64,000 bases of DNA from Gemmatimonadota bacterium (GTDB taxonomy: Bacteria > Latescibacterota > UBA2968 > UBA8231): contig JAYPJE010000018.1 of the NCBI GenBank assembly GCA_038128265.1, positions 12,555-76,554 on the forward strand, read 5' to 3'. The position numbers were made by a program, and so were the translations under genes. Below are positions 1-43,838 of this stretch, in pieces (positions within the stretch are counted from its first letter, which is position 1; every line of letters begins with the position of its first letter). The notes under the pieces are model-generated. The model made no database searches. It had not been told where the DNA came from and was given only the letters and a program-made list of their open reading frames with translations.

Positions 1-2
1 GC

Positions 3-1796
3 TTTCGCGATCCGACCGTGCTGTATCAACCCAGGGGCACCAGCGTGCGCGAGGATACGACCAACGCACCCGGAGAGGCCATCGACTTCAACCACAGGCC
101 GGGGTGGATCAGCTCGCTGTTTTTCGAGACCGATCAAAATATTGCCGCGCGCGCGCTCGAGCGCGACGGACGCGTCTTTTTGGTTAACGCATTTTACGGC
201 GCGACGGAAGCCGAACAGCTGCGCGGCACGGTCAACGGAGATCACGACGTAGCCTTCGAACGCAGGCCTAGCCTAACGGACCCCACACCCAAAATACGCG
301 ACGTGTGGGTCGGACTCGATTTTGCGGAGCTCGTCGGCATACATCGCGTGCGCTTTTACCCGCGCAATACGGTGGAGGCAGCGCCGTTTTTTTCTTTCCA
401 GGACGACTATCTACGCGCCTATGAGCTGTGGATCAATCCCTTTGAAACCGACCTGGCAACGCCCGACGTATTGGTGCGGCGCAACACGGCCAACGAACAT
501 CCCGTCGTCGACATACAGATGGCGCCGCAGTATATACGCCAGCTCAAGCTACGATCGCTGACGGCCGTGCCTTTTGAACTCGACGAAATCGAAGTCTACG
601 GCACCGGCTATATGAATCAGGGTAGGTATCTATCGGACATTATCGATTTGGGCGATCGTGCATCCATTGGACCGCTGCGCTGGGTGGAAGACGCGGTCGG
701 CGACTCGCTCTTTTCCAAGCTGAGCGTGCGCCTGCGCACCGGCCACGACGACACGCCGCTTATCTACCAGCAGTGGTTGCGCGATTCGCAGGGGCGCATT
801 ACCGGACCAACCAACGTCACGCCCGAGCAGTACTACGCGCTGGAGCGCCGCGACCGCGTCGCGCTCGGACCAGAGGACGGCGACAACTGGAGTCCCTGGT
901 TTACCGTCGAGCGCGGTAGACTAGCCGCCGCTCCACTGCCTCGCCGCTACGCGCAACTCGAATTGGCGTTTGAAGGCCGGCTCTTCGACAGCCGATTGGT
1001 CAGAAACATCGAGTTCGAATATCTCGTGCCGCCCATCGCCGACGGACTATGGGCCGAGGTCTATCCGCGTCTGGCCGAGGCCGAGCGACCTGCGAGCTTT
1101 CGCTATGGCGTCCGCCTAAAAAACAGGGGCGACGCGCGCGGCTTCGATCGCTTGGAAGTAGATACTAACGTTGCAGTGACTGCCGTGCGCGAGCTAACAA
1201 TAGACGGCCAGCCGACTGAATTCGAGGTCGAATACGTGCGCGAAGACGGGTTTGCACTGCGCTTTCCGCTGGTTCAGCAAGACGGGGCCGTGCTAGAATT
1301 CACCTTTGATCTGCCCATTTTCCGCTTTGGCACGACCTTCTCGGGGCGCGCCTTCAACGCGCAATTTGCCTCCGTGCCACAGCAGCTACAGGCGGGGGAT
1401 GCCGTCGACTTTGGGCCCGATGATTTCGGCCCACTCTCCGGGCTCTTTGTCGCCATTCCAAAGAAGCAGCTGGGCAAGCTAGTCGGCGAAATTGCGGTCG
1501 ATAGCCGCATATTCACCCCCAACGGCGATGGGATAAATGAGCAGTTTGACCTGTCATTTAACCTGCTGCAGTTAGTCAAACCGGCGCCCGTTACGCTCGA
1601 CCTATTCGACCTGAGCGGTCGACTCGTGCGCCGCGCGTGTAGCCAAGAGTTGGGCATTGGACCAGCCAAATGTGCGTGGGATGGGCTATTAGACGACGGG
1701 CGTTTAGCGGCTCCGGGCACCTACCTATGGGTGCTCACCGTGCGCGCCGACGCATTTGACGAGCAACACACGGGTGCGATTTCACTTGCATACTGA
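3..1796 (+). CDS. Family-A (subtype A2) exported protein: discoidin-like module + Ig-like domains + C-terminal FlgD-Ig/CHU_C-like domain; 5'-truncated by window edge
   Basis: Frame is open from nt 3 (FRDPTV...). Motifs LDF..IHRVRFYPRNTV, DEIEVYG, RTG.D, WSPW, IFTPNGDGINE, WDG...PGTY; ends ISLAY. Collinear with the paralog at 36716-38641. Confidence 0.8.
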   Translation, partial: FRDPTVLYQPRGTSVREDTTNAPGEAIDFNHRPGWISSLFFETDQNIAARALERDGRVFLVNAFYGATEAEQLRGTVNGDHDVAFERRPSLTDPTPKIRDVWVGLDFAELVGIHRVRFYPRNTVEAAPFFSFQDDYLRAYELWINPFETDLATPDVLVRRNTANEHPVVDIQMAPQYIRQLKLRSLTAVPFELDEIEVYGTGYMNQGRYLSDIIDLGDRASIGPLRWVEDAVGDSLFSKLSVRLRTGHDDTPLIYQQWLRDSQGRITGPTNVTPEQYYALERRDRVALGPEDGDNWSPWFTVERGRLAAAPLPRRYAQLELAFEGRLFDSRLVRNIEFEYLVPPIADGLWAEVYPRLAEAERPASFRYGVRLKNRGDARGFDRLEVDTNVAVTAVRELTIDGQPTEFEVEYVREDGFALRFPLVQQDGAVLEFTFDLPIFRFGTTFSGRAFNAQFASVPQQLQAGDAVDFGPDDFGPLSGLFVAIPKKQLGKLVGEIAVDSRIFTPNGDGINEQFDLSFNLLQLVKPAPVTLDLFDLSGRLVRRACSQELGIGPAKCAWDGLLDDGRLAAPGTYLWVLTVRADAFDEQHTGAISLAY

Positions 1797-1819
1797 GAGA
1801 GGAACCTAGCGCCAAAACC

Positions 1820-4474
1820 ATGCTGAATAGAATGCGACTTTACACGCTGGCGGCCTGGGCCGTACTGGCCCTGTCTGGCATACCGCTGAGCGCGCAGGAC
1901 TACGGCACGCGTTTGGGGACCGTCCAGCGCGGCGGCAAGGTCTCGTTTGAACCCGCCGGGCCAGGCGTGCTCTTTGACGCGCTCGACCCGACGCTGCGGC
2001 GCTGGTACGTGCCGCAGGAGCTCTATTCCGAATACCAGTGGAAGCAGTGGGAGTACGCCAACTACGCGCGCGAAAACTACCAGCGCTACGTTTCGACCTC
2101 GTTAGAGGGCAATTTCTTCTACGATCTCTACGGCAACTTCGTCACGCGCGGCTGGCTGATCTACGACTGGCAAGAGCTCAGCCCCGAACCCTTTGGCAGC
2201 TCGCTAACCAAAACCTCACTGTTCGGTCGCTGGTTTAATAATTTGGTGGTGGCATCCGACCACAAGGGGCAGTACCACTACGCCATCACCGTTGGCAACG
2301 AAATACGCACCACGCTGACGCCCATGACTTTTTCCAAACCGCTGTTTAACGGCATACAGTGGGACTTTGCCACCGACAAGTACGAAGCGACGCTGCTGCT
2401 TTCGCGCATTAGCGATCCCAACTCGTTTATGGTTGGCGGCACGGCGCGGCAGTTGACCGACAATACCAACCTAGCCGGTGGACGCATGACCGTACAGGTA
2501 GGCGACTTCGTCCGACTCGGCGGCACCTTTGTCAACGCCCACCACAGCTATACGCGCGCCGAGGCGTTCAGCGATGACATCTTTAAGGGCAACCTGCTCG
2601 GCGTGCAGAACGAAGAGCCCGTTGGCGCTATCTTCGTCCGCATACGCGACGATTCGCCAGAAGACGGCGAGAGCGGTGGAGCGCTTTTCGCCAGCGATAT
2701 CGTGATAGAAAACCTGGCGGGCGAGGAAACGCGCGGTTCCGAAATCGGCTTCCGTGCCTCCATCGAAGGCGGCTTCCAGCGCCGCGGCTTTCTGTCGGCC
2801 GATGGCAGCGAAGAGATCGTCCTGACTTTTGACTTTGCCGATCCCACCTATACCGGGCCCGATGCGAGCCAGATTCGCCGGGTCGTTCTAGAGCTGGTGC
2901 TGGCCAACGACTATGCGGTAGACATGAGCTCCGATCGCCAGACCGCGATCAACGGCGGCCGCGTATACCTCCCCGTGGCTCGAGCTTCGGGCAATGTGCA
3001 GGATGGATCAAACCAGCGCGTGCTCGCCTTTGAATACGGCCTGCCGACAGCCAACCAGATCGTCGGCTTTACGATGGAAATGACCGACCTAGAGGGGGTA
3101 GAAGCGCACCTCGAATACAATATCAACCACCGCTATCGAAAGTATCCCAACCCGCGTCTGAATATGCATAGTGCCGCCAGCACGCGCGCCGACGCGTGGA
3201 CCGCCCAACTGTCCAAGCAAGCATATCCATTCTTTTTTTATGGCGAAGCGTTTGATGTAGATGACCACTACAGCACTTCTATGGATGTAGTTGATGAAAA
3301 CGGCGCCCTAGACTACAACCGCGAGATACAGCGCTACGAATTTGTCGAGGACAACGACGACCAGGACCGGCGGCCGGACTGGAAGCGAAAGGGCTGGAGT
3401 TTTGGCGATTTGGAAATTTTTCCCGGCTGGGATGAAAACAACGACTTTGTCTCTGATTTCAACCAAAACGACAACGAGATTAGCCCGAACCGCGTGCCCG
3501 ACTACGACGAGCCCTTTCTGCGCTTCCGCACCGACCGACCTGAATTCCTCTACGGCATCGACATGAATCACAACGGCACGATCGACCGCTTCGAAAACGA
3601 CGAAGAGGCCGATTTGCCCTATCAACGCAACCGCAGGGGGTTTAATACCTATGCCGGGGCGTACGCACATCCCGACGTGCGCCTGACCTTGGGTTGGACG
3701 CGCACGGGTGAAAAGGCGTCGGCAGGGCGCAGCCGCGCACTATACGCCCTTGCCACGATCGATCACAGTTACCGACGCTTGGGGCGCGTGCAGCTATTCC
3801 AAGACCTGCGCAAAGTGCGCGATACGATTGCCGACGACCTGGTGCAGTGGCTGCAGCCACCCAATTCGCGCGGGGATTTATTCCCGGTGCCCGACGAACT
3901 GCCGGCCCGCGATACAATCGTCAATACGACGTGGGTCGGCTGGCAGATAGAGCCACTAATCGGGCTGCGCTTCGCCCACAAGCTCAAGTGGCAGCGCTAC
4001 CAGCAGTTGGCCAACGACCAGCAGTTAGACCTAGCGGGCCTGCGCCGCACAGCCGCATTTCTCGGCGCGGTCAGCCAGGTCGAATACCAGCTCAGCTTGA
4101 ACAAACTCAGCCTCGTACCCGGCTGGAAAAGCGAGTATATCGACCGCGCACCCGTGCTGCGCAGACGGGCGCGCGAGCGCGAGTGGAGCCAGTTCTTTAT
4201 GCTGCTCATGCGCCTACCTATCATGCGCCGCAGCACGTTAGAAGGAGGCGTAGAGTACGAGATCTTCTCCCAGCTGCGCAATCCGCGTCCTCCGGGCGCC
4301 GAAGACTCGTTTAACGGCCTCGTCGCAGCCATACAGCTCAATAACGTATCGGAATATCTGGGCTATCGGCTGACCACGCTGGCCGGTCTCCAGGTAACGC
4401 GGCGCAACTTTGAAATCGAGGGAACGCAGACCAATACGCGCGGTTTTATGACCGTTTTTGCCGGAGTCGAATAG
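1820..4474 (+). CDS. Family-B large exported/outer-membrane protein (884 aa), putative beta-barrel with Asp-rich loops
   Basis: GAGAGG RBS; signal peptide (…PLSA/Q); DNDDQD, GWDENNDF, DMNHNGTID motifs; amphipathic C-terminal strands ending GFMTVFAGVE; close paralog at 33956-36673. Confidence 0.8.
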   Translation: MLNRMRLYTLAAWAVLALSGIPLSAQDYGTRLGTVQRGGKVSFEPAGPGVLFDALDPTLRRWYVPQELYSEYQWKQWEYANYARENYQRYVSTSLEGNFFYDLYGNFVTRGWLIYDWQELSPEPFGSSLTKTSLFGRWFNNLVVASDHKGQYHYAITVGNEIRTTLTPMTFSKPLFNGIQWDFATDKYEATLLLSRISDPNSFMVGGTARQLTDNTNLAGGRMTVQVGDFVRLGGTFVNAHHSYTRAEAFSDDIFKGNLLGVQNEEPVGAIFVRIRDDSPEDGESGGALFASDIVIENLAGEETRGSEIGFRASIEGGFQRRGFLSADGSEEIVLTFDFADPTYTGPDASQIRRVVLELVLANDYAVDMSSDRQTAINGGRVYLPVARASGNVQDGSNQRVLAFEYGLPTANQIVGFTMEMTDLEGVEAHLEYNINHRYRKYPNPRLNMHSAASTRADAWTAQLSKQAYPFFFYGEAFDVDDHYSTSMDVVDENGALDYNREIQRYEFVEDNDDQDRRPDWKRKGWSFGDLEIFPGWDENNDFVSDFNQNDNEISPNRVPDYDEPFLRFRTDRPEFLYGIDMNHNGTIDRFENDEEADLPYQRNRRGFNTYAGAYAHPDVRLTLGWTRTGEKASAGRSRALYALATIDHSYRRLGRVQLFQDLRKVRDTIADDLVQWLQPPNSRGDLFPVPDELPARDTIVNTTWVGWQIEPLIGLRFAHKLKWQRYQQLANDQQLDLAGLRRTAAFLGAVSQVEYQLSLNKLSLVPGWKSEYIDRAPVLRRRAREREWSQFFMLLMRLPIMRRSTLEGGVEYEIFSQLRNPRPPGAEDSFNGLVAAIQLNNVSEYLGYRLTTLAGLQVTRRNFEIEGTQTNTRGFMTVFAGVE

Positions 4475-4475
4475 C

Positions 4476-6323
4476 GTGATCGCACAACGGTGCATAGGTC
4501 GTGCTCTCCCAATATTCGCCGTTCTGCTGCTGCTGGCCGCATGCAGCGATGAGGGCCGTCGGCTTATTGATACGTCTTCTTCTCAGGACGCAGTAGACCA
4601 TTCGATCTTTGCCGATGCCGGACTAGAGGGAGCCGTGCGCTCGGCGCTACAAACGCCCCGCGGTCCGATCGATCAGACTGCGTTAGAGAACCTTGCATCA
4701 CTAGATGGCAGCAATCGCGGCATTGTCGACCTGCAGGGCATCGAACGGCTGCGCGGCCTGCGGCAGCTGCGCCTGGCACACAACGAAATCCGCGACCCAA
4801 CGCCGCTGAGTGCGCTCGACTCGCTCGCCGTGCTCGACCTGTCGAACAACGCACTTTTTAGTGCAGTAGCGCTTGCTCCGCTCGTTCAGCTAACCCACCT
4901 AAATCTCGATTTCAATCGCATTTTCTCCGTTGTGCCACTGGCGCAGCTAGAACGCTTAGAATTACTCAACCTCCACGCCAATCGCGTTTCCGACATTGCC
5001 GCGCTGGCCGGACTGCAGCGCCTGAAAAGCGTCGAGCTATCGGGCAACCCGCTCAGCGCAGAGGCTATCGCCACCGACTTGCCGGCTCTGGTGCGGCGCG
5101 GCGTCCAGGTCCATTTCTACCGCAGCGAGGGCGTCTTATTAATACCCGACTTGCAGCTAGAAGCGCTGCTGCGACGCGTTACCAACAAGAATCTCGGCAA
5201 CCTGACCCAAGGCGACCTCAACCGCGTCGTGCGACTGAACATAGAGGGCAGCGACCGCATCAGCGATTTGCGCGGCATTGAAAACCTAGTCAACCTTACA
5301 ACGCTGCGCATAAGCGACACGCGCGTTCCCAACGCCTTTCCCATTGCCGGGCTAAACAGGCTGCGCACGCTTGAAATAAACAATACGCGCATTGAAGACG
5401 TGTCTTTTACCGCCGAATTGGTCGAACTGCGCACGCTCGCGCTCAACAACACCGGCGTGGAAGACATCGGACCGCTGGCCAACCTAACCCAGCTGCAAAC
5501 GCTGTCGCTCATCGGCAATAAGATCGACGACCTGCAGCCGCTGGCCGGACTGACGCGGCTTTTGCGCCTCGAGCTGGCGCGCAACCGGATTCGCTCCGTG
5601 CGCCCGCTGAGCGGTCTGGCCCGCCTGAACATTCTCAACGCCGCCGACAACTCCATTGACGACCTGTCGCCGCTCAGTGGCCTCACGTCGCTCGACGCAC
5701 TTGATCTAACGGCCAATTTCGTCGAAGACGTCTCTCCGCTCAGCCCGCTAGACCGCTCGCTCAACCAGCTGATCTTGGCGGAAAACCGCATCGTCGACAT
5801 ACGGGGTTTAGCGGCGCTAAACCGCATCGTCCAACTCGACCTGTCCAACAACGCACTCGTCGATATAAGCACGCTGAGCCGCCTGACGCGCCTGCGCGAA
5901 CTCGACCTGTCTGGCAATCGCATTGAGCGCATTGACGCACTGGCCGAACTGCCCCTTCGCGTGCTCGACCTAGCCAATAACCAGCTAGTAGACATCGGTG
6001 CACTGGCCGATCTAGATCGGCTTACATCCCTCTTTATTTTTAATAATTTGGTAAGCGACATAGCGCCGCTGGCCAACCTGCAAGCGCTTGAAATACTCGA
6101 TCTATCGGTTAATCGCGTGAGCGACCTAACGCCGCTTTCAGGCCTAGTTAGGCTGCGCCAGTTCAGCGCCATTGCCAACCGCATCGAACAGCTAACGCCG
6201 CTGCTCGAATTGGAAGACCTGCAGTTTGTCGCCCTAATCGGCAACCGCCTAAACGCGCAGTCACTGAGCATAGAAGTGGGGCAGCTGCGCGAACGCGGCG
6301 TAGAAGTGGTGCTCGGCGAATGA
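4476..6323 (+). CDS. Family-C internalin-like leucine-rich-repeat lipoprotein
   Basis: GTG start just after the upstream TAG; lipobox LAAC; FAD..LE..VR cap; 22-aa LxxLxLxxNxIxDIxPL repeats in two blocks (about 6 + 16); RGV.V caps. Confidence 0.88.
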   Translation: MIAQRCIGRALPIFAVLLLLAACSDEGRRLIDTSSSQDAVDHSIFADAGLEGAVRSALQTPRGPIDQTALENLASLDGSNRGIVDLQGIERLRGLRQLRLAHNEIRDPTPLSALDSLAVLDLSNNALFSAVALAPLVQLTHLNLDFNRIFSVVPLAQLERLELLNLHANRVSDIAALAGLQRLKSVELSGNPLSAEAIATDLPALVRRGVQVHFYRSEGVLLIPDLQLEALLRRVTNKNLGNLTQGDLNRVVRLNIEGSDRISDLRGIENLVNLTTLRISDTRVPNAFPIAGLNRLRTLEINNTRIEDVSFTAELVELRTLALNNTGVEDIGPLANLTQLQTLSLIGNKIDDLQPLAGLTRLLRLELARNRIRSVRPLSGLARLNILNAADNSIDDLSPLSGLTSLDALDLTANFVEDVSPLSPLDRSLNQLILAENRIVDIRGLAALNRIVQLDLSNNALVDISTLSRLTRLRELDLSGNRIERIDALAELPLRVLDLANNQLVDIGALADLDRLTSLFIFNNLVSDIAPLANLQALEILDLSVNRVSDLTPLSGLVRLRQFSAIANRIEQLTPLLELEDLQFVALIGNRLNAQSLSIEVGQLRERGVEVVLGE

Positions 6324-8158
6324 GATATATAGCTCTCTACGTTGTCTGCGTGCTGCTGGCAGCGCACGCCCCAGTGCAGGCGCTCGATACGCTGCGCGTG
6401 GGGCGCGGTGCCGATGCCATGCGCTGGTCATCCATCGTTGAATCGGCCGCTTTTGTCGGGGTATCGGACGACTCGATTTGGACGTGGCCAACCGAACGCG
6501 GACAAAACCTCATCGCCGGCCTGCGCGAACGCGGCGGCCTCATCGCCGCTCAGATACAGGTGCTGACGCCCGGCGGCTATGTCGACGCGCTGTCCGAGCG
6601 CGAGCAATTGGCGCACTGGATCGACGGCGACGCGTCTACAGCCTGGGGACCGGACAGCGATCTGGAGGTAGGGCGGCGCGCCATTATCTACATCGACTTA
6701 GGCGCGACCTTCCGCATTGACCGCATCCGCTTCTACCCGCGCCTAGACAGCGACAATCGAGGACGGCTGCTCAGCAGCTTTGCGCTGGCCAGCAGCGATG
6801 GGCAGGAGGGCTCGCCGCTCAACGCGCCGTACCGCACGCTGCCAGGCCTGACCTTTTCTTCCTTTAACCCCAACCGCCAGCCCGTTGTCGATGTGCACTT
6901 TGAGCGGCGCGACATCCGCTATATCCGGTTAATTTCGCAAACCGGCGAACCGTGGGAGCTAGCCGAGTTTGAGGTATACGCCGAGGGCACGATGCCGAGC
7001 GGCACATTTACTTCGACCCCGCTTTTTATACGCGGCGGCTATCCCATCTGGGGCGCGATGTCCTACGAAGGCGGCGATTTGCAAACGCTGCCCATCGTCG
7101 TGCAGACGCGCACGGGCCCGGACGACGAGCCCCTGCACTATTTTTTGCAGCGCGGCGACGAGTTGGAGCGCGTTTCCGCCGAGGAATACGCTGCCTTTAA
7201 CCCACTCGACTTTTCCGGCGCCGCCGAAGTCAACCAGGGCCCCATTCAACCCAACCCGGCGTGGAGCCCGTGGCAGACCGTAACGGATGGACTCGTTCCA
7301 TCGCCGGCGCCGAGGCGCTACATTCAGTTCCGCGTCGAAATGACAGAGCCGGGCACCGCCATCGAAAACTTTCTGATTGAGTACGTGCAGCAGCCGTTGG
7401 CCGATGAGCTAGTGGCCGAAGTCAGTCCGCTCGTCGTCGCGGCAGGCGCACTGACCGAATTTACTCTATCTCTACAAGTGCAGCTCAACCACGGGCGCGG
7501 CGATACGGGCTTTCGCTATCTGCAGGTGCGCACACCGGCCGCCATTGACCGCGTGCTAGCGGTGCGCGTCGACGACCGAGATGCCGTATTCACGCCACAG
7601 TACGATGAGAGAGGATTCACCATCGATATATGGGAGCGCATCGCCCAGTCGGGCACGTTTGTCCAGATCGACTTTGCGGCGACGGTACTGCGAGATGGAA
7701 CGACCTTTGAAGTGCGCGCACTAGACGAACGCGCCGAGGATGGACGCGTCGAATCCGTCTACCAAACGGCGCGAGCAGGCGATGTCGATCCGCTATCGGT
7801 GGGGGGCGAATTGAGCGTGCGCTTGCGCGATGAGCGCAGCCCGCTGATTAAAAACTTGGCCGCCCGCTCGACGACCATTACACCCAACGGCGACGGCATA
7901 AACGATGCGCTAGAGGTTTCGTACGACCTCCTCAAGCTAACCGAAAACGCCGCGGTATTCTTCCAAATATTCGATATGAGCGGCGCGCTGGTCGCGCAGG
8001 GAAGGAGCCTAGAGCACAGCGGCCGCTTTGTGCGCGTGTGGCGCGGTGAAGACGGCAGCGGACGGCGCGTGCTGCCGGGCATCTACCTATACCAGGTCGA
8101 GGTCGAGGCCGATGTAGGCACGACGAGACGGCTGGGTTCCGTGCGCGTTACCTACTAA
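6320..8158 (+). CDS. Family-A (subtype A3) exported protein with C-terminal FlgD-Ig/CHU_C-like domain
   Basis: ATGA overlap with the LRR stop; signal peptide (VQA/L); IDGD..TAW, YIDLG..IRFYPR, QTRTGPD, WSPW, ITPNGDGIND; ends VRVTY. Confidence 0.82.
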   Translation: MRYIALYVVCVLLAAHAPVQALDTLRVGRGADAMRWSSIVESAAFVGVSDDSIWTWPTERGQNLIAGLRERGGLIAAQIQVLTPGGYVDALSEREQLAHWIDGDASTAWGPDSDLEVGRRAIIYIDLGATFRIDRIRFYPRLDSDNRGRLLSSFALASSDGQEGSPLNAPYRTLPGLTFSSFNPNRQPVVDVHFERRDIRYIRLISQTGEPWELAEFEVYAEGTMPSGTFTSTPLFIRGGYPIWGAMSYEGGDLQTLPIVVQTRTGPDDEPLHYFLQRGDELERVSAEEYAAFNPLDFSGAAEVNQGPIQPNPAWSPWQTVTDGLVPSPAPRRYIQFRVEMTEPGTAIENFLIEYVQQPLADELVAEVSPLVVAAGALTEFTLSLQVQLNHGRGDTGFRYLQVRTPAAIDRVLAVRVDDRDAVFTPQYDERGFTIDIWERIAQSGTFVQIDFAATVLRDGTTFEVRALDERAEDGRVESVYQTARAGDVDPLSVGGELSVRLRDERSPLIKNLAARSTTITPNGDGINDALEVSYDLLKLTENAAVFFQIFDMSGALVAQGRSLEHSGRFVRVWRGEDGSGRRVLPGIYLYQVEVEADVGTTRRLGSVRVTY

Positions 8159-8259
8159 GCAAATCGAGGGAACAACAACGAAGGCGCGACCGGCACGGTT
8201 GTTTGTCGTCGAATGACCTCCTATCTTGTAGGCCTATTTTTCACCAGCAGGAGCCGCCG

Positions 8260-9738
8260 ATGAGCAAACGCACTGCAGCGCGCGGCTGGGACCGCAACTG
8301 GCCTGCCGCCGCCGCTTTCCTAGCGCCAAACTTCCTCGGATTCCTCTGCTTCACGCTCTTTCCCGTGCTGCTCTCCTTTGCTATGGCCTTTCACCACTGG
8401 ACGTTGCGCCCCAGTGAAAAAGTGCAGTTTGTAGGCCTGCGCAACTTTGCCGACGTAGTGGGCGTCCGCGCAATCGACGCACCGCACTACGACGTGCTGG
8501 CCCTCTACACGACCTGCATATTGGCGCTGGTAGCCGGTCTAATCGGTCTGCTCCTGGCCAGCGTGCATGCTTGGCGCGGAGGGCGCGTTGGGGGCATAGC
8601 GGTGTGCGTGACGGGCTTAGCGTTGGTCTGCGGCGCCGTTGCAAGCGGGGCGGCAGGGCACCGCGGTGCGCTGGCTTTTTGGTTTAGCGAGGGCGGGCAG
8701 GGCCTGTTTTTCGCCGGTCTGCTGCTCCTACTGTGCGGAGCGGCCGTCGCTGCACGCGAAGACAGTGCGTGGGATTGGGGAGCCGGCGCTCTACCGGGCG
8801 TGGCCATCGCCCTAGCGGTCTTGGGCCTATGGCAGTTAGACGGGGCCATGTGGTCGGCCTATGAGCCGCGCGATGCGCGCTTTTGGTACTATTTCTACAA
8901 CACGCTTTTTCTCATGATGGGCCTACCCATCGCCGTAGGAGGCGCGCTCTCGCTGGCCCTGCTGCTCAACGAGGAACTGCCGCTCGGCCCGTGGCGCCAG
9001 CGCCTTCCGGGTGCGCTGGCCTGCCTTGGGCTAGCCCTGTTCTGCGCCGTGCTGGGCTTTGGCCTCGGTTGGAAAAATATCGGCCTGCTCGCCGCGCTGG
9101 TCTGGCTCTTTGCCGGACTGGGCTTTCTATTCAACATCGTCACCTTTCGCACCATCTTCTACCTGCCGCAGTTCACCTCCGGCGTTGCCGTCTTTATTCT
9201 GTGGAAGTCGCTCTACCGGCCCGAGACCGGCCCCATTAACATCGGGTTAGAAGCCGGCTTTGACGCGCTCGGACTAGCGCTATTAGCACCGTCCTGGCTG
9301 GCCGAAATCGCCTGGGCCAAATCGGCTATTTTAGCAATGGGCGTGTGGATTTTTATCGGCGGGCAAAACATGCTGCTCTACCTAGCCGCCCTCTCCAACG
9401 TGCCACAGGAGCTGCTCGAGGCCGCCTCCATCGACGGCGCCAGCCGCTGGCAGCGCTTTCGCCACGTGACCTGGCCGCAGCTAGCCCCGACAACGTTCTT
9501 TATCACCGTCGTCTCCGTAATAGGCGGTCTGCAGGGCGGCTTTGAACAGGCGCGCGTAATGACGGGCGGCGGCCCGGCCGGCTCGACGACGGCGCTCAGT
9601 TACTACATCTATAACAAGATGTTCCAAGACCTCGACATGGGCTATGCCGCGGCCATTTCCTGGGTCCTATTCGCCTTTATCTTCCTAGCGACGGCGCTCA
9701 ACTGGCGCTTTGGGCGCGACCAGGAGGTGGACCTGTGA
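8260..9738 (+). CDS. Carbohydrate ABC transporter permease (MalF/UgpA-like) with extra transmembrane insertions
   Basis: ATG 8260 after CAGGAG; FLAPN…F.GL.NF, FRTIFYLP, EAA loop EAASIDGASRWQRFRHVTWPQL, MGYAAA. Confidence 0.88.
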   Translation: MSKRTAARGWDRNWPAAAAFLAPNFLGFLCFTLFPVLLSFAMAFHHWTLRPSEKVQFVGLRNFADVVGVRAIDAPHYDVLALYTTCILALVAGLIGLLLASVHAWRGGRVGGIAVCVTGLALVCGAVASGAAGHRGALAFWFSEGGQGLFFAGLLLLLCGAAVAAREDSAWDWGAGALPGVAIALAVLGLWQLDGAMWSAYEPRDARFWYYFYNTLFLMMGLPIAVGGALSLALLLNEELPLGPWRQRLPGALACLGLALFCAVLGFGLGWKNIGLLAALVWLFAGLGFLFNIVTFRTIFYLPQFTSGVAVFILWKSLYRPETGPINIGLEAGFDALGLALLAPSWLAEIAWAKSAILAMGVWIFIGGQNMLLYLAALSNVPQELLEAASIDGASRWQRFRHVTWPQLAPTTFFITVVSVIGGLQGGFEQARVMTGGGPAGSTTALSYYIYNKMFQDLDMGYAAAISWVLFAFIFLATALNWRFGRDQEVDL

Positions 9739-10592: not shown

Positions 10593-10596
10593 GCGC

Positions 10597-11997: not shown

Positions 11998-12073
11998 GAG
12001 GGCGCGCACGGCCCGGAACTCTTTGCCGTTCTGTAAATTGATCAACTGGAGAAAAGAAGGCGAAACACTGTGG

Positions 12074-12511
12074 TTAGTTGGCCAGAGCGATCATAATCAC
12101 GCCCGCCGTGATTAGCACCGCACCTAGGCCGACTTTCCAGGAAAAACTTTCGCCCAGCACGACAAAGGAGATGATCAGCACCAGCACGACGCTGAGCTTG
12201 TCGATGGGCGCCACGCGGGAGGCCGGTCCAAGCTGCAGCGCCTTGTAATAGCACAGCCACGACAGTCCGGTAGTGATGCCGGAAAGCACCAGAAACGTCA
12301 GCGCCCTCAATGGGAGCTGATCGATGCGCATCCACTGCTCTTTGAAGGTCACGAAAAGCGCGGTGACGCCCAAGATGACCACGGTGCGGATAAAGGTGGC
12401 CAGATCGGAGTGGATTTTCTCGACGCCGATCTTGCCGAGTATAGTAGTCAGCGCGGCAAAGACCGCCGCGCCCAACGCGTAGAACAGCCAGGAACCGTAA
12501 AAGCCCGACAT
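12074..12511 (-). CDS. EamA/DMT family membrane protein (single domain)
   Basis: FAALTTILGKIG, GLSWLCYYKAL..G.AS.VAPIDKLS, LGE; ~5 TM segments; GGAGG RBS. Confidence 0.88.
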   Translation of the reverse strand: MSGFYGSWLFYALGAAVFAALTTILGKIGVEKIHSDLATFIRTVVILGVTALFVTFKEQWMRIDQLPLRALTFLVLSGITTGLSWLCYYKALQLGPASRVAPIDKLSVVLVLIISFVVLGESFSWKVGLGAVLITAGVIMIALAN

Positions 12512-23347: not shown

Positions 23348-23348
23348 T

Positions 23349-33942: not shown

Positions 33943-33955
33943 GCGCGCCGCCGCG

Positions 33956-36673: not shown

Positions 36674-36715
36674 TCTTCTACCTTGTCGAAAAGGGCTCTC
36701 GAACCGCAGGCCGCG

Positions 36716-38641
36716 CTAGTACGCTACGGCGATGCTGCCCGAGTGCACTTCTTCAAATGCATCTGACTCGACGCGCAGCACCCATAAATAGGTGCCCGGT
36801 AAGAGCCGCTTTCCATCACCGGCTCGCCCATCCCAGGTGAATTCAACGGGCCCAATGCCGAGTTCAGCGGCAAAGGCGGTATGCACGCGCCGCCCTGCCA
36901 GGTCGTATACCTCAAAGACTACCGGAGCGGGCTCCGTTATTTGCAACACATTGAAAAAGACATTCAACTCGTCGTTGATGCCATCGTCGTTAGGCGTTAA
37001 AAAGCGCGTATTGGCAACGATTTCACCAACCAGCTTACCGATCTGTGGCTTGGGAATGGAGACGGCCAATCCCGATAGCGCATCGTCGTCTCCCGGACCA
37101 AAATTGACGGCGTTGCCGCTGACGACGGCCTGCGGCACGCCCACCGCCGCGCTGTTAAAGGCGCGGCTGCTAAACGTCGTGCCAAAGCGGAAAATCGGCA
37201 GATCAAACGTCAGCTCTAGCAGCGCCTGATCCTGGGTTACCAGCGGGAAGGAAATGCCGAAACTCTCCTCGTTAGCAAAGTCGACGGCGTATTCAATCGG
37301 CTCGCCGTTGAGCTTTACTTCGCGCACGTCAGTCGTAGCGACGTTGGTATCGACGATGAGGCGGTCAAAGCCGTATATAGGCAGCAGGTTGCCCTCGCCA
37401 TCGCTGGCGCGTTCCAGGCGCAGAGCATAGCGAAAAGTAGCCGGCTCTTCGGCCTGCGTCAGACGCGGGAACACTTCGCCGACAATGCGATCGGCCAGCG
37501 GCGGGCTGAGATAGTCAAATTCGAATTGGTCTAATTCACGCGTGCGGAACAGTTCGCCCGTAAACTCGAACTGGAACTGCACGTAGCGGCGCGGCGACGG
37601 CGCGGTAATCAATTCGCCGCTGTCAACCGGTCGCCAGGTGCTCCAGTTGACGTCGTCTTCGCTAATCGGACCGCGATCGAGCGGGTCGAGCGCAAAAAAG
37701 GCGTCTGGGCCAATGTCGACGAGCGTGCGCGTAGGATTGCCCGCCGCATCCGTGCCGCGCTCAACCCGGTTGTAGCGCAGCGGCGTGGGGTCGGTCCCCG
37801 TGCGCACGCGCGCGCTGAGCGAAGAAAACTCCGCTTCGCCAACGGCTTCCTCCAGCCAGCGCACCGGACCAATGGTGGCGCGCTGGCGGAGATCGATGAT
37901 GTCCGTCAGGTAGGTCGCGCGCTGCAAATAGCCCGTGCCGTATACTTCGATTTCGTCGATCTCGAACGGCACGTTGGCCAGCGACTTGAGTCGCAGCACG
38001 CGCACGTACTGCGGCGGCACGGCGATGTCGACGATGGGCTCTTCGTTTTCAACGTCGCGCTCGACGAGTATATCGGGCGAGGCCAGGCTAGGGCGCTCGG
38101 GGTTAACCCACAGCTCAAAGGCGCGTAGAAAATCGTTTTGGTAGGGATGCGTCGGCGTCGGCACAACGGTGTTGCGCGGATAAAAGCGCACGCGCTGCAC
38201 GCCGATGGCCGTGCCGAAGTCGAGAATGACGCGGACGTTGCGCGCGTTGACTTCTGGCTCAAACGCCGTCGGTTTGCGCGTAAAAGCTACCGTTGGGCTG
38301 CCGTTTACCGTGCCGCGTAGCTCGGCCTCAAAACCGCGTCCCACGTCGGGCGACGTAATCGACGCGCCGGGCAGCAACACGCGCGCTGCGACGTTTTCGC
38401 CCTCTTCGAAAAAGAGCGGACTGATCCAGCCCGGGCGCCGATCAAACTCGATCGAATCGTCCGGCGAGTTCGTGGTATCGATCGCCGCGCCGTTGCGCAC
38501 CTTGGGATCAATACCGCTACCGCCCGTGCGCCAAGGCGTAGAAGGCGAACCGATAATAAACGTGCGCGCGCGCTGCGCATGGGCGCCCTCTACGGCAAGC
38601 AGCAAAATAACCAGAGCGCATAGCTCACACAGTCGCCGCAT
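36716..38641 (-). CDS. Family-A (subtype A2) exported protein with C-terminal FlgD-Ig/CHU_C-like domain
   Basis: Start MRRLCEL in TGATG overlap with the upstream stop; signal peptide (AHA/Q); RPGWISPLFF, RVRFYPRNTV, LTPNDDGIND; ends IAVAY. Confidence 0.82.
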   Translation of the reverse strand: MRRLCELCALVILLLAVEGAHAQRARTFIIGSPSTPWRTGGSGIDPKVRNGAAIDTTNSPDDSIEFDRRPGWISPLFFEEGENVAARVLLPGASITSPDVGRGFEAELRGTVNGSPTVAFTRKPTAFEPEVNARNVRVILDFGTAIGVQRVRFYPRNTVVPTPTHPYQNDFLRAFELWVNPERPSLASPDILVERDVENEEPIVDIAVPPQYVRVLRLKSLANVPFEIDEIEVYGTGYLQRATYLTDIIDLRQRATIGPVRWLEEAVGEAEFSSLSARVRTGTDPTPLRYNRVERGTDAAGNPTRTLVDIGPDAFFALDPLDRGPISEDDVNWSTWRPVDSGELITAPSPRRYVQFQFEFTGELFRTRELDQFEFDYLSPPLADRIVGEVFPRLTQAEEPATFRYALRLERASDGEGNLLPIYGFDRLIVDTNVATTDVREVKLNGEPIEYAVDFANEESFGISFPLVTQDQALLELTFDLPIFRFGTTFSSRAFNSAAVGVPQAVVSGNAVNFGPGDDDALSGLAVSIPKPQIGKLVGEIVANTRFLTPNDDGINDELNVFFNVLQITEPAPVVFEVYDLAGRRVHTAFAAELGIGPVEFTWDGRAGDGKRLLPGTYLWVLRVESDAFEEVHSGSIAVAY

Positions 38642-41331
38642 CACTCGCCTAACCCCGCGTTGATAGATAGAAAGAGCATGCTGGCACGCTCCGTCGGACG
38701 CTCGGCAAAATTCTGCCGCTCGACCTGCACACCCAGGCGCGTGACGAGCTGGTAGCCCTGATAGGCCACGCGGTTGGTCAGCTGGGTGAGCAGCGTCCAG
38801 GAGCGAAAATTTTCGGCAATCTCCTCGCGCGCCCCGTCGAGCATCCAAAACCAGGAGCGCTCCAGGCCAATTTGCAGTTGGCTATCGAAGAGCTGCCGTC
38901 CGTAGCGAGGGAAGTAAGATACCCCTGCCGACTCGGCAAAGAGCGGCTGGGTCCACAGCAGAAAAAGCGTCTCCTCAAGACTTTCGGCTCGCCCCAAGCG
39001 CGTCGTAAACGGGCGATCGCGGCGGTACTCGCTCTTCCAGCGCGGCTCGAAGACAGCCAGACCGACGGGCATGCTCCACTCGATCTTGCTGATGGAACCC
39101 AAGAAGCCGCTGCGCTGACGAGCGGGAAAGCCAAAGAGGTCGGTCGTCTCGCTGGCGCGCTGGTGCACCTCCTCCCACTTAACGCGGTGCAGCAGGCGGA
39201 TATCGGGCCCCACGCGCTGGTCCAAGTCGGCGTAGATCGTGCCCTTCCAAGCGTCTTTAAAGGGAAGCTGGTCGAGCGTCTCCCGCATGCGGCCAGGTGA
39301 TCCCATCGGCTGAAACCACATCCATAAATCGTCGGATATATTGTCCTCGACCGAAGCGCCGTGGGCGAATACCCGCAGCGCACTGCCGCCTCTAAAACGA
39401 TAGCGCCACCCCAGCAGCCCGTACCACGACTGCGTGCGTCCGTCGCCGGAAATCAGACGCATATCCTGGCGCCCGAGCGTGAGCGAAAAGCCGGGGCCGA
39501 TATTCGCTTTGGCATGCGCGTTAAAGCCGCGGTGATCGCCCTTGTAGGGATAGTCGGGCAGATCGTCGTTTTCAAAGCGATCGATCGTGCCGTTGTAGTT
39601 CATATCCAGACCAAAGAGAAATTCCGGGCGATCAGAGCGAAAGCGCAGAAACGGCTCCTCGTAGTCGGGGAAAGAGTTGCTGTTCTGGTTGTGGTCATTG
39701 ATGAAGTCGCCGTTTTCGTCGAATCCTGGCCAGGCGACATCGTTCCAACTGCGCGAGCGCACGATATTGCCCGCGCTGCGCTCCAAGTCGGGTCGCTGCC
39801 ATTCAGGCAGTGCGTTGTAGTCGTCGTCGTCGTCGACAAATTCCATGATCTGTGGAATGGGGTCTTTGTAGCGAATGCGTCCTTCTTTATCGACTAGCCA
39901 GTAGTTCGTGGTGTACTCGTCCTCAATGCGAAACCCCTCGAAAAAGAGCGCCCACGGATAGGCGTTCCAATCGGCCTGCACGTAGGATGCCGTGCCGCTC
40001 AAGTCGTGCCGATAGTGCGTTTTTTCCACCGAGTTGGGGTAGGAAAAAAAACGTCGGTTGAGCACGGCCTCACCGCGCACCGACAGGCCGTGCCAATTGC
40101 TCAGCTCCCAGTTGGCACCGAGTAATTCGTTGGCCGTTGGCAGGCCGTAGTCGACCTGAATAAATCCGGTATTGCTGTTATCCTGCACGTTACCGCGCGC
40201 GCGCCGCACGGGTAAAAAGATAATCTCCGGATTAAAGCGCTCGCCGTCCGTCTGCAGGTTAGAGGCCACTTCGATTCGGTAATCATTGGCGACGGACAGT
40301 TCAAACGTGGCGCGCGTAATATCGGCTGAGGTAATGTCTTCATAGCGAAAGCGCGCCAAATCGTACTCGAGCACGATATTTTCCGCATCGCGTGCGACGA
40401 GGCGTCCTCCTTCGTTGCCCCCACCTGAGATTTTGGGCAGCAACCCAACTTCGCGCCCGCGATAGACGTTGCCTTCGCGATCCTCGATGACGATTTCGTA
40501 ATCGGCCAGCACGGCCGCCGCGTCGCCCTGCCCAGGCGAGTCGTCGCGCACGCGCACCCACAGTTTGTCGAGCGTGCGGTTTTGCTGCGTCGAGAGCGTG
40601 CCGCGCAGCGGGTTGCCCTCGTTGACCTCAAGCTCAGTCTGGGCATTGTGGGCGTTGACGTAGCTAAAGCCCAGCGTGCTGAAGCTGCCCAACTGAATCT
40701 CAGCGTGACCGGCCAGCATCTGCGTCACGTCGGTGCGGTCTTCACCATCGGGTGCCGAGGGGCGCGAAGCCAGCAGCGTCGCCATCAACACGTCGTTGGC
40801 GTAGTCCATGCGCACACCGTTAAAGCGCGGCTTATACAGCGTGAGTGGTGTAAAAAACGTGTAGATCTGATCGCCGATCATCAGGCGGTAGTTGCCGCCG
40901 TCGCGACGATCACCGGCCACGACCATCCGGCCAAAAAATCGCCGATAGGCGTTGCCGCCAGTATCTTTGTCTATGCGGCTACCGCGCGGCAGCGGCTGCT
41001 CTTGGCTCCAATTGTAGACCAGCCAACCGCGTCCCAGATGCGTGCCAAAGGTATCGTAAAAATCCGCGCCTTCGAGCAGGTTGTTGACGTAACGCTCGTA
41101 GGGCTGAACAGCATAGCGCGTGTCGGACGCATACCAGGGCTGCATGTAGGTCTCGGGCAAGTGGCGCAATCCGTACCACCTGTGCAGCGCGGGGCGCGCG
41201 TAGTCTATTTCAAAGCGATTGCCGTAGGGATTAACCGTAGCCAAACCCCAGTTGTGTGGATCTTCGAGGCGGCCCTGAGCCAACGCACAGACGGGCAATA
41301 GAAGCAGTAAAAGGGAGCGAGCGCTACGCAT
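38641..41331 (-). CDS. Family-B divergent paralog (B') large exported/outer-membrane protein
   Basis: Start MRSARSLL in TAATG overlap; signal peptide; FTPLTLYKPRFNG, RDDSP, YGLPTANE, PGFDENGDF, DYEEPFLRF, DMNYNGTIDRFEND; ends INAGLGE. Confidence 0.8.
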   Translation of the reverse strand: MRSARSLLLLLLPVCALAQGRLEDPHNWGLATVNPYGNRFEIDYARPALHRWYGLRHLPETYMQPWYASDTRYAVQPYERYVNNLLEGADFYDTFGTHLGRGWLVYNWSQEQPLPRGSRIDKDTGGNAYRRFFGRMVVAGDRRDGGNYRLMIGDQIYTFFTPLTLYKPRFNGVRMDYANDVLMATLLASRPSAPDGEDRTDVTQMLAGHAEIQLGSFSTLGFSYVNAHNAQTELEVNEGNPLRGTLSTQQNRTLDKLWVRVRDDSPGQGDAAAVLADYEIVIEDREGNVYRGREVGLLPKISGGGNEGGRLVARDAENIVLEYDLARFRYEDITSADITRATFELSVANDYRIEVASNLQTDGERFNPEIIFLPVRRARGNVQDNSNTGFIQVDYGLPTANELLGANWELSNWHGLSVRGEAVLNRRFFSYPNSVEKTHYRHDLSGTASYVQADWNAYPWALFFEGFRIEDEYTTNYWLVDKEGRIRYKDPIPQIMEFVDDDDDYNALPEWQRPDLERSAGNIVRSRSWNDVAWPGFDENGDFINDHNQNSNSFPDYEEPFLRFRSDRPEFLFGLDMNYNGTIDRFENDDLPDYPYKGDHRGFNAHAKANIGPGFSLTLGRQDMRLISGDGRTQSWYGLLGWRYRFRGGSALRVFAHGASVEDNISDDLWMWFQPMGSPGRMRETLDQLPFKDAWKGTIYADLDQRVGPDIRLLHRVKWEEVHQRASETTDLFGFPARQRSGFLGSISKIEWSMPVGLAVFEPRWKSEYRRDRPFTTRLGRAESLEETLFLLWTQPLFAESAGVSYFPRYGRQLFDSQLQIGLERSWFWMLDGAREEIAENFRSWTLLTQLTNRVAYQGYQLVTRLGVQVERQNFAERPTERASMLFLSINAGLGE

Positions 41332-43838
41332 TAATACACCAGGTGCAGCAGGCGGATCGTGGCGGTGCCATCGGCGTCGCTGTCCGTTGCCAAGTGAATG
41401 CGCAGCACGTATAGGCCCGGCGGCATGATGCGCCCGCCGTCGTCGCGACCATCCCAAGAAAACACGTGCTCACCGCTGGGAAAGGAGCGCAGCACGCTCA
41501 AGTCGCGCACGCGCTGGCCCGCCAAGTTGAGCACTTCGACGCCGAGCTTTTTCTCTCGCTCTAGGTGGTACACCGTAATCCGAATATCGGTCCGATCGTT
41601 GATGCCGTCGCCGTTGGGCGTAATCACGCTGGGCTCAACCTGCACATTTTCAAGCAGCGAATTGTCCTGCAGGCGCGACGTGACCGACAGGCTCTGCGTG
41701 GCTACAACCTCTGTAGCATCACCGCCAACTACGTCCTGCACCAGTCCTGGCTGCGCGGCGTTTTGCAGCTGTGCGCTAAAGACCGTGCTCTGCAGAAAAA
41801 CGCGCGTGCGGAAGCGGAAGGCGTATACCTGATTGCCGCGCACGACCGGCTCGGGAAAGCGCACCACGACCGAGCCTTCTTCGCCGCGCGACACCTCGAG
41901 ATCCCCATCGGGCCACAGGCGCGTGCCCGCGCCAAAGCGCAGACCGCTATCGCTGCCAACCAGCACCTCACTGAGTTCAAGCGGTTCCGAAGACGTAGAG
42001 CGCAGGACAATCTGATCGAAGCCCGGATTATCGGGCCCAAAGATGGGGCGCACATAGAGGGTGAAGCTCTCGTCGACTCCCGGCTCTACACCGCCGGTGG
42101 GAAAGATTTCACCAAAGGCCGTATCGACCAGCGGCGGCACAAAATGCAAGCGCAGGGAGCGCAGCCAGGCGCGCTGCAGCGGTTCGCGCGACAGCAGGCG
42201 CACCTGCACCTTAACCAGCGGGCGCGGTGCCGGCGATTTAAACGCCTCGCCGGACTCCGTATAGGGCTGACTCCAATTGCTCCAATCCGGACCCGTTATC
42301 TCTTCAAATACGGGCGGTGGACGCGGCGTCTGCTCCGTATCGGGCAGGCGCCGCCACAGATCCTCGGAAATTTCGCGGCCGTTCATCGTGAAGTAGTGCG
42401 GCTCCAGCGTGACCTTCTCACCGGTGCGCGTGCGCACTTCAATGCGCGTATTGGGCGGCGCTTCGCCGTCCCAGGTCACGCGGTTAAACAGGCGCGATCG
42501 GTCCAACTGGATAAAGGGCGATTCCATGGTGATCTCGGAGACGTAGCCCTCTCCGTAGGCTTGGATCTCGCTCAGACGCCCCTTTTCAAAGTTCGAGCCG
42601 CTAAACTCGAGCTGACGAAACTCGATGTAGCGCACCTCTTGGCGCGGAAAGGCCTCTTCGACGTGCAGCAGGCGCTCGAGGTTGCGGCGCTCGTCAAAGG
42701 TCGTCCAGACGAAGTTTCCGTTGGCGTCAACCGAACCATCGGAGATGCGCACCTGATAGGCGAAGGGCGGTCGATCGGGGCTGAGCAGTTTGATGCGATC
42801 CAGCCAGTACTTGGCCCCCAAATCAATCTCAACTTGGTTTTCATCCTGCACCGCATCGTAGAACAGCATGTCTTTGTTGGTGGCAAAGAGACCGTCGGTA
42901 AAGGTGCGAAAGAGCAGAAAGTCGTACTGACCGATGGCCAGCGCCTCGCGCTCGCGCTCGGCCTGCGTAATAGCGATGATATTCTCTCCAAGGGCGAATA
43001 CCTCTACTTCGCTGAGGCGCGGCCGCTCGCGCCGATAGTAGCGCACGGGACCGCGCTCTTCTTCGGCCAAATCGGCGTAGGTATTTTCGCTGACGGCAAT
43101 GAGGCGACCGCTTGAAGTCTGCAAGAAATAGTCAACGTCGCCGCGATCTTCTTCAGGCAGCAGGTCGAACTGTTCGCGAGTTATTTCTTCGGCGCGGCCG
43201 CCGGCCGTAGCCAGCACGTCGATGCGCACCTTTTGCACGATAGCGCCTTCAATGCCGGGCGCCACCTTGCGCTGTGGCGTCAGCTCAAAGGTAAACTCGC
43301 GCTGGCCGGATAGATTGCGCACCAGGCCAACTCGCGCAAAGATCTCGCTAGCGCGACCGGCCGCCGCCAACCCGTCGGAGGTAAGCACGCGAAACTGGCG
43401 AAAGGGATCGCCCTGTCCCTCGTCGACAAAGCGCACGACAATGCGCTCGACGATCAGCGTGCGCTGCAGGTCGACCTCAAAGGTCCACGTAGAGATGTCG
43501 TCCGTCCCATTGGGTTCCCAGTAGGTCTCCGAGTTGCCGTCCACGGCGAGCATGGCCTGTTCTGGATTGCTATTGGCCACCGCCACGGCGATAACAGAGT
43601 CGTCTTCGGCGCTGTAGACGGCGTTGACGTGGCCGCGCAGCAGGCGCGGGATAACCGTGCCGTCCGCCCGTATAATGCGCGCACCCGTGGGCGCCTCCCA
43701 TGCCCGCCAGTGGTCCGGCGTTTCAATGAGCACGCGGTCGTCCAACACGTCGTAGCCGAGCAGCACTTCTTCCTCTTCTTGGGCGCTCAGAGGCAGGGTG
43801 CAGAGGGCGACAAATATGTATGTAAGTAGTTGATTCAA
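41331..43838 (-). CDS. Family-A (subtype A1, 835 aa) exported protein with two discoidin-like modules and C-terminal FlgD-Ig/CHU_C-like domain
   Basis: TTG start; signal peptide (PLSA/Q); AVDGNSETYW…VDL…ERIVVRF and IDLG…DRIKL modules; RTRTG, WSNWS, ITPNGDGIND; ends LHLVY. Confidence 0.8.
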   Translation of the reverse strand: MNQLLTYIFVALCTLPLSAQEEEEVLLGYDVLDDRVLIETPDHWRAWEAPTGARIIRADGTVIPRLLRGHVNAVYSAEDDSVIAVAVANSNPEQAMLAVDGNSETYWEPNGTDDISTWTFEVDLQRTLIVERIVVRFVDEGQGDPFRQFRVLTSDGLAAAGRASEIFARVGLVRNLSGQREFTFELTPQRKVAPGIEGAIVQKVRIDVLATAGGRAEEITREQFDLLPEEDRGDVDYFLQTSSGRLIAVSENTYADLAEEERGPVRYYRRERPRLSEVEVFALGENIIAITQAEREREALAIGQYDFLLFRTFTDGLFATNKDMLFYDAVQDENQVEIDLGAKYWLDRIKLLSPDRPPFAYQVRISDGSVDANGNFVWTTFDERRNLERLLHVEEAFPRQEVRYIEFRQLEFSGSNFEKGRLSEIQAYGEGYVSEITMESPFIQLDRSRLFNRVTWDGEAPPNTRIEVRTRTGEKVTLEPHYFTMNGREISEDLWRRLPDTEQTPRPPPVFEEITGPDWSNWSQPYTESGEAFKSPAPRPLVKVQVRLLSREPLQRAWLRSLRLHFVPPLVDTAFGEIFPTGGVEPGVDESFTLYVRPIFGPDNPGFDQIVLRSTSSEPLELSEVLVGSDSGLRFGAGTRLWPDGDLEVSRGEEGSVVVRFPEPVVRGNQVYAFRFRTRVFLQSTVFSAQLQNAAQPGLVQDVVGGDATEVVATQSLSVTSRLQDNSLLENVQVEPSVITPNGDGINDRTDIRITVYHLEREKKLGVEVLNLAGQRVRDLSVLRSFPSGEHVFSWDGRDDGGRIMPPGLYVLRIHLATDSDADGTATIRLLHLVY

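Follow-up and report, generated by a model that had tools for sequence, protein, structure and literature searches.

A multi-copy cell-surface gene module of Latescibacterota that includes an undescribed family of large outer-membrane beta-barrels

The 64,000-nucleotide (nt) stretch of DNA analysed here (hereafter the window; G000:C18:12555-76554) belongs to a Latescibacterota metagenome-assembled genome (G000; assembly GCA_038128265.1) of 4.29 Mb, 102 contigs and 84% completeness. The window encodes two gene clusters that are copies of one cell-surface module of this phylum. Three protein families make up the module: family A, composed of exported lectin- or adhesin-type proteins with a C-terminal tail resembling the type-B tails in type IX secretion systems (T9SS); family B, an undescribed family of large outer-membrane beta-barrels; and family C, composed of leucine-rich repeat (LRR) lipoproteins. 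A and B genes are neighbours in many genomes of the phylum. With a probability of roughly one half, B may be a functional counterpart, without homology, of the PorP/SprF barrels of Bacteroidota, shuttling or anchoring the A proteins.

The barrel family and its lectin-like partners

The members of family B are 870-980 amino acids (aa) long. None of the three B genes of the window belongs to a Pfam or NCBIfam family, and 30 members searched against Pfam at E-values up to 10 gave no match. The AlphaFold2 (AF2) model of B (predicted local distance difference test, pLDDT, 65.6) contains about 26 long strands, approximately at residues 188-882. Together with the Pfam results and profile comparisons made with hhalign, this model bears out the preliminary description of this DNA, in which B was taken for a large outer-membrane barrel distinct from PorP/SprF. 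The structure matches of B are to generic outer-membrane barrels only. A Foldseek search of the pdb database with the B model returned SlpA, MtrB, LptD, FimD, porins and SprA at TM scores of 0.12-0.24, none of them a specific relative, and a wide VIA-align search, in which unlisted families are not covered, gave flat Z scores of 10-15 over porins, Omp85, TonB-dependent transporters and LptD. Likewise, PF07715 (Plug) and PF00593 (TonB_dep_Rec) gave no row for B, and both match the TonB-dependent transporter of the window (45110-47269). In the ESM Atlas, the 30 clusters nearest to B are all unnamed, and the nearest named one is the TonB-receptor-like DUF6029 (0.89). DUF6029 was rejected as the identity of B, its profile matching another open reading frame (ORF) of G000 and no B locus.

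Among 7999 scored candidates (90% clustering), 1044 are homologs of B, whose protein names are absent or 'hypothetical' and which fall into 797 clusters at 50% identity. The genome_contigs set contains at least 571 B loci, and metagenomes contain thousands. Those with organism names are assigned to Latescibacteria or Latescibacterota. Submitter labels of 'Gemmatimonadetes' and 'Planctomycetota', which would place B in other phyla, were set aside, three of these contigs coinciding with contigs of the Latescibacterota search. In the literature searched on Latescibacterota secretion and outer membrane, neither the barrel family nor its size, acidic loop of calcium type or host phylum is described; one of these articles, in the passages searched, mentions just non-specific porins and TonB import (PMC4454575).

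The best-conserved stretches of B are residues 26-175 (majority fraction 0.83) and 511-600 (0.86), compared with 0.65-0.70 in the barrel, and they are exactly the parts that are poorly modelled by AF2. Within the second one, residues 581-592 form the invariant loop D-x-N-x-N-G-x-x-D-R-F-E, which we take to fit the EF-hand loop pattern.

The A proteins are Sec-exported, all-beta proteins of lectin or adhesin type, with two jelly-roll (discoidin-like) domains, an immunoglobulin (Ig)-like domain and a type-B-like T9SS tail. Indeed, the AF2 model of A2 from cluster 2 (pLDDT 86) is all-beta: a pair of jelly rolls is followed by the Ig-like domain, by a short linker of low confidence and by a C-terminal sandwich. 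Foldseek matched this model solely to multi-domain beta-sandwich proteins, including galactose oxidase and the discoidin pair of neuropilin b1b2, and did not point to an enzyme. The Pfam family F5_F8_type_C was detected in only two of the six A genes of the window, A3 of cluster 1 and A1. As regards the tails, five of the six exceed the CHU_C cut-off of 27 bits (29.3-36.9 bits); A1 reaches 25.2 bits, yet scores 32.7 bits with FlgD_ig.

Profile hidden Markov models (HMMs) were built from the 6 A, 3 B and 3 C proteins of the window and run on all G000 ORFs of at least 100 aa. They detected 96 A matches, 60 of them full length at 100 bits or more and the other 36 limited to the tail, as well as 24 B and 5 C paralogs in this 84%-complete genome. 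Two clearly separate tail classes are present, type A and that of the A family. Of the 52 ORFs with CHU_C scores above the cut-off, 48 belong to the A family (48 of its 60 members), and the type-A model TIGR04183 exceeds its own cut-off in 46 ORFs, 42 of them other proteins and 4 A-family members; the type-B-like character that had been ascribed to the A tails is thereby supported. The motif [ST]PN[GN]DG occurs in 51/60 A members and in 0/36 other tail-bearing ORFs. In the printed examples, the A-family tails end in ..[AV]Y and the others start with an NPFNP-type sequence and end in ..LL[KR]. Furthermore, 45/60 A members carry PNGDGxN[DE], which presumably resembles the motif of type-B tails, and NCBI gives three of the 120 A2 homologs listed the name 'T9SS type B sorting domain-containing' or 'gliding motility-associated C-terminal domain-containing'. 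Between A subfamilies, conservation is also highest in the tail, where A2 and A3 are 35-42% identical as against 20-28% in the other domains. The variable binding specificity proposed earlier found no support, A orthologs being conserved evenly and well across domains.

The A and B genes are closely linked. In G000, a full-length A gene is encoded at most 300 nt 5' of B for 16 of the 24 B genes. In the phylum, A lies directly 5' of B in 30/30 top loci (one of which is cluster 2 of the window), in 19/20 wider regions, families f5 and f6 included, and in 70/76 assessable loci of the genome_contigs set; the three sets share genomes and kin, and their counts are not independent. This order, with gaps of 0-60 nt or stop/start overlaps, is kept across genera and across the taxonomic families f1 (that of the window), f5 and f6. 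The conserved linkage of A and B expected from the window alone thus holds in other genomes. B was found in 107/168 Latescibacterota genomes: 75/75 in f1, 0/56 in the sister families f2-f4 and 31/36 in f5-f14. Where B is strong, CHU_C mostly matches strongly as well (best E 1e-9 to 1e-14), the best values in the B-negative f2-f4 being 1.6e-6 to 5e-4.

The C proteins all contain LRR_4 and LRR_8 (LRR_4 at 119-198 bits), and a lipobox cysteine following a hydrophobic stretch was recognised by eye in 3/3. Their best NCBIfam rows are internalin models, and they share tandem LRR_4/LRR_8 repeats with internalin-type surface proteins; however, their scores of 131-247 bits fall far short of the 1600 set as the cut-off for InlA (NF033189 and related), and they are Gram-negative lipoproteins with a lipobox and without LPXTG or GW module. 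C lies 3' of B in 18/30 and 17/73 loci, which makes it an accessory conserved in a single subtype of the module and not a core part. With only five copies in the genome, C fits the earlier proposal of a three-family system only as such an accessory.

Organisation and copies of the module

Listing of ORFs, Pfam searches and all-versus-all BLASTP agree with the preliminary description that the window contains twelve genes of three families (6 A, 3 B and 3 C) in two clusters. Cluster 1 is encoded on the plus strand. Its A2 gene (3..1796) is cut at its 5' end by the window edge; the full gene (G000:C18:12440-14350) encodes 636 aa and matches CHU_C at 29.3 bits. It is followed by B (1820..4474), which codes for an 884-aa barrel, by C (4458..6323; start codon uncertain; LRR_4 198 bits, LRR_8 110 bits; lipobox LLLAAC by eye) and by A3 (6320..8158; CHU_C 36.2 bits, F5_F8_type_C 29.1 bits). 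The order of cluster 1 was thus correctly given as A2-B-C-A3. It is not truncated on the contig, where A1 (C18:7207-9702) and B' (C18:9702-12443) are present upstream of the window and complete the order A1-B'-A2-B-C-A3.

Cluster 2 is encoded on the minus strand as an operon-like array with A1 as its first gene (41331..43838; F5_F8_type_C_2 44.4 bits, FlgD_ig 32.7 bits, CHU_C 25.2 bits). Downstream of it are B' (38641..41331), whose real start is Met43 of an ORF reaching 41457 and whose signal peptide follows this Met43; A2 (36716..38641), of 641 aa when read from Met70 of an ORF reaching 38848, and identical to the 641-aa record P0271; B (33956..36673), which has no Pfam match; C1 (32524..33942; LRR_4 124 bits; lipobox LTAC), with a likely start at MKKRLLLL in an ORF extending to 34017; A3a (30692..32527; CHU_C 36.9 bits); C2 (29342..30634; LRR_4 119 bits; lipobox LTLSC); and A3b as the last gene (27477..29345; CHU_C 32.7 bits), 49% identical to A3a.

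The tight packing reported earlier is confirmed: with the likely starts, neighbouring genes abut or overlap by 1-4 nt. In particular, the C stop and the A3 start overlap by 4 nt in 3/3 pairs, and A1/B' and B'/A2 of cluster 2 overlap by 1 nt, given the likely real starts. The signal peptides on A and B and the lipoboxes on C (LLAAC, LTAC, LSC) were likewise recognised, by eye and not with a predictor. A scan of both clusters for sigma-70 promoters returned 1 and 0 promoter-like sites, below the shuffled counts, and a scan for intrinsic terminators returned weak, intragenic terminator-like sites alone; the operon boundaries would thus be putative ones, drawn from gene spacing only.

According to BLASTP, the B proteins of clusters 1 and 2 share 60% identity over 865 aa, and B' shares 35% identity with either of them over ~900 aa (E 1e-165 or lower). 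The A2 pair is 53% identical, the three A3 40-49% and the C copies 34-39%; A1 shares 24-26% identity with the remainder of family A (E 1e-18 to 1e-22). All of these E-values lie far outside the range of chance. The module, described as present twice, does occur twice in the window; genome-wide, the six-gene order is found three times, with two copies on C18 and one on C40, and C11 carries part of a fourth. G000 also encodes about 15 A/B clusters of differing composition, for instance A-A-A-B, A-B-B and arrays of 4-5 A genes. Survey of their neighbourhoods, in which 54/112 flanking ORFs were scanned, revealed tetratricopeptide repeat (TPR) proteins and FG-GAP/ASPIC proteins as recurrent neighbours, no extra partner being universal.

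Divergent B-like barrels (~900-1050 aa, HMM scores 201-366) were also observed at G000:C7:54000-74000 (L083) and G000:C35:1-20000 (L082). Their neighbours code for a short A-like protein, CBM9-like proteins, small unknowns and TPR/YfiO-like proteins of ~1070-1095 aa. Just 5' of the A/B-like cluster of L082, a 546-aa ankyrin-repeat protein is encoded (G000:C35:2069-3709).

Secretion context and role of the barrel

T9SS type-B cargo with a cognate barrel is a known kind of system. As described in two articles (PMC9143113, PMC12618676), type-B cargo binds or needs an adjacent PorP/SprF-like barrel; the pairs are SprB-SprF, Fjoh_3952-Fjoh_3951 and orphan substrates with Fjoh_1677, three such orphans sharing one shuttle, in Flavobacterium johnsoniae, and PG1035-PorP-PorE in Porphyromonas gingivalis. 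The module resembles such systems in three respects: (i) a gene for CHU_C-tailed cargo adjoins a gene for an outer-membrane barrel, (ii) many cargo/barrel paralog pairs are encoded per genome, some of the cargo being barrel-less, and (iii) SprA, PorU and PorV are present. Of the T9SS core genes brought up in the preliminary description, SprA and PorV were found in G000, as was PorU, and GldM and GldN were not: SprA_N matches a 2163-aa frame (and was detected in 160/168 genomes of the phylum), PorU is well over its cut-off of 420 bits with a score of 657, and PorV, which adjoins PorU, scores 69.9 bits. PorP/SprF (PF11751) has no match in G000 and in 0/75 genomes of family f1, and is not detectable in the taxonomic family of the window. 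A T9SS review, in its introduction, lists other phyla of the Fibrobacterota-Chlorobiota-Bacteroidota (FCB) group with T9SS and does not list Latescibacterota among them (PMC11285876).

On this basis, the A proteins would cross the outer membrane via SprA, and the cognate B barrel would then take them over and hold them on the surface, thus taking the place of the PorP/SprF-like barrels that shuttle or anchor type-B cargo in Bacteroidota. A proteins without a B of their own, such as A3 here, could share a barrel in the manner of the orphan type-B substrates of Flavobacterium johnsoniae. C, translationally coupled to A3, is probably a partner of A3 at the membrane, and the likely purpose of the module would be the binding of glycans or surfaces.

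Several observations weigh against such a role of B. B, with ~880 aa and ~26 strands, a conserved N-terminal region and the invariant EF-hand-like acidic loop, is about 2.5 times larger than PorP/SprF-like barrels and has no sequence or profile similarity to them, so that the analogy is one of position and absence only. In the phylum, PorP-like ORFs measure 265-485 aa, in addition to one 1047-aa frame, and the PF11751 profile has 273 positions; hhalign of B against seven Latescibacterota PorP-like barrels gave a probability of 0.4%. A clean complementarity between PorP and B was considered and had to be softened: PF11751 matches 26/31 genomes of the B-negative family f4, but marginally (20-28 bits), and these matches are also PorV-like. 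In contrast to type-B T9SS cargo, the A tails stay below the NCBIfam type-B cut-off, TIGR04131 scoring 17.8-25.7 bits in five of the window proteins (cut-off 35) with no row for A1. The host is a member of Latescibacterota and not of Bacteroidota, and no PorE-like partner was seen in the clusters. Regarding linkage, 44/60 A genes of G000 have no B directly downstream, and one B gene of G000, on C14, has no A nearby. Lastly, the GldM/GldN models TIGR03517, TIGR03523 and PF12081 have no match in G000 at its 84% completeness, GldK and GldL not having been searched for, and PF12081 (GldM_1st) matches 0/168 genomes of the phylum. No control genome was positive for the GldM/GldN models, so that divergence and absence are indistinguishable and a complete T9SS is not demonstrated; the phylum's T9SS would have an energising part that has diverged strongly, or else a different one. 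Modelling of B (residues 26-884) in complex with the A2 tail (470-597) gave no answer (score 0.00, without controls) and weighs neither way on binding.

A conserved three-gene locus was observed in B-negative genomes of f4 (L166-L168, L170, L171). Its first gene codes for a Plug-bearing barrel of ~1070 aa, the second for a protein of 718-765 aa ending in ..VV[R]/..VIR, the L166 copy of which has no Pfam family, and the third, which follows the 718-aa tail-bearing protein, for a PorP/PorV-like barrel of 372-374 aa.

The main rival to B as shuttle or anchor is that B is chiefly an oligosaccharide channel or importer, with a SusC-like role but no homology to SusC, that the A proteins act beside it in binding glycans at the surface and that ATP-binding cassette (ABC) transporters complete the uptake. 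It is compatible with docking of A on B, and we regard it as possible but clearly less probable. SusC/SusD are outer-membrane complexes of Bacteroidota for glycan capture and import. As in these, a large barrel gene stands beside genes for surface proteins of carbohydrate-binding type and for lipoproteins, in multi-copy modules, and genes for carbohydrate-active enzymes (CAZymes), sulfatases and ABC transporters are found near the module in the window: sugar-type ABC transporter genes start 45 nt 3' of cluster 1 on the same strand, and sulfatases abound in the window, along with GHL10, a polysaccharide lyase, SASA and a GH20-like gene. A solute-binding protein and a permease are also encoded 3' of B on C16. 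The A proteins have a lectin-type fold, as indicated by F5_F8_type_C and by the galactose oxidase and neuropilin matches, and the conserved N-terminal region of B (~150 aa) precedes the barrel as in plugged transporters; the proximity of DUF6029 in the ESM Atlas is a lead only. Nevertheless, B lacks Plug and TonB-dependent receptor matches, the DUF6029 profile recognises a different ORF, and the partners are T9SS-tailed beta-sandwich proteins rather than SusD-fold lipoproteins. In fold searches, TonB-dependent transporters (Z 10-12.6, the SusCD-type BT1762-1763 reaching 12.6 in VIA-align) are no better than porins, Omp85 and LptD. Most other module copies have no CAZyme context, and ABC neighbours occur in only 2 of the about 15 A/B clusters, the neighbours being mostly peptidyl-prolyl isomerases (PPIases), TPR proteins and FG-GAP/ASPIC proteins.

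These PPIase genes, which are SurA-like and flank 4/14 of the A/B regions examined, instead recall chaperone-usher pili, in which genes for a barrel of similar size (FimD) and for a number of paralogous, secreted beta-sandwich proteins occur together; B could then be a SprA-independent, usher-like or two-partner-like pore that assembles a fibre or coat of A subunits, with PPIase chaperones in other subtypes of the module. The combination of several paralogous subunits with one ~880-aa barrel, the failure to detect GldM and GldN in the phylum and the presence of FimD in the Foldseek list (E 5.5e-5, TM 0.19-0.21) agree with such a pore. However, FimD matches no better than LptD, MtrB or porins, neither an Usher match in B nor a PapD match was obtained, the modules of the window have no chaperone gene, and the A proteins carry a T9SS-type tail in a genome where SprA, PorU and PorV are present. 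An usher-like pore is therefore a weaker rival than the glycan channel, and we consider it improbable. It is more improbable still, to the point of being hardly credible, that A, B and C are merely expanded envelope families that are co-located and functionally uncoupled. The barrel-less majority of A genes and the occurrence of C in a minority of loci would fit an uncoupled set, but the A-to-B order is kept across genera and across three taxonomic families, and strong CHU_C matches and B co-occur at the genome level.

The shuttle or anchor role and glycan uptake could also be combined. Calcium-binding barrels of ~26 strands would then replace PorP/SprF, dock lectin-like cargo and admit glycans, forming a SusCD-like apparatus built on T9SS parts with no recognisable GldM-type motor; taken as a whole, this combination is speculative and seems doubtful to us.

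Other features of the window and implications

The sugar-type ABC genes that follow cluster 1 (8203..11997, plus strand) code for two permeases (BPD_transp_1 twice) and a solute-binding protein (SBP_bac_1), and their membership of the module is uncertain. The permeases encoded at 8203-9738 (+) and 23298-25160 (+) are 511 and 620 aa long and have long N-terminal extensions, BPD_transp_1 occupying the last ~185 residues. A further ORF (20771-23347, +) combines SBP_bac_1 (residues 201-411) and BPD_transp_1 (644-852), which may reflect a genuine fusion or the read-through of two genes; a CN_hydrolase ORF on the opposite strand overlaps its 5' part. Genes for glycan and sulfate-ester use are dense between 12538 and 64000. 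They encode two sulfatases together with GHL10, a SASA esterase and a polysaccharide lyase, a GH20b-containing protein, a protein with RGL11_C/3-keto-disaccharide-hydrolase domains, two dioxygenases of the PhyH type and a TonB-dependent receptor. The last part of the window (62001-64000) has a G+C content of 0.534 and a GC skew of +0.18, the values elsewhere being ~0.60 and ~0.

DNA near-identical to positions 33901-43900 of the window (at least half of the sampled words) was found in 8 DNA runs from 5 studies, labelled as estuary, marine, biofilm, seawater and aquatic metagenomes; the best-matching of these runs may represent the source sample. No RNA run is listed among the matching sequencing runs, hence they give no reading on expression.

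In summary, family B is an unnamed family of at least 1044 proteins (90% clustering), with 24 copies in a single genome and with relatives recognisable only as 'outer-membrane barrel'. With about 60 A paralogs per genome, it represents a sizeable share of the envelope proteome in a widespread uncultured phylum. If B is a shuttle or anchor, an unrelated barrel would have been recruited outside Bacteroidota to reinvent the cargo-sorting step of the T9SS, and the definition of the system would be widened. Since A and B genes are natural neighbours in hundreds of cases, their interaction is amenable to co-evolution analysis, and the module, if it works as proposed, would offer a way into the binding or harvesting of polysaccharides by Latescibacterota.

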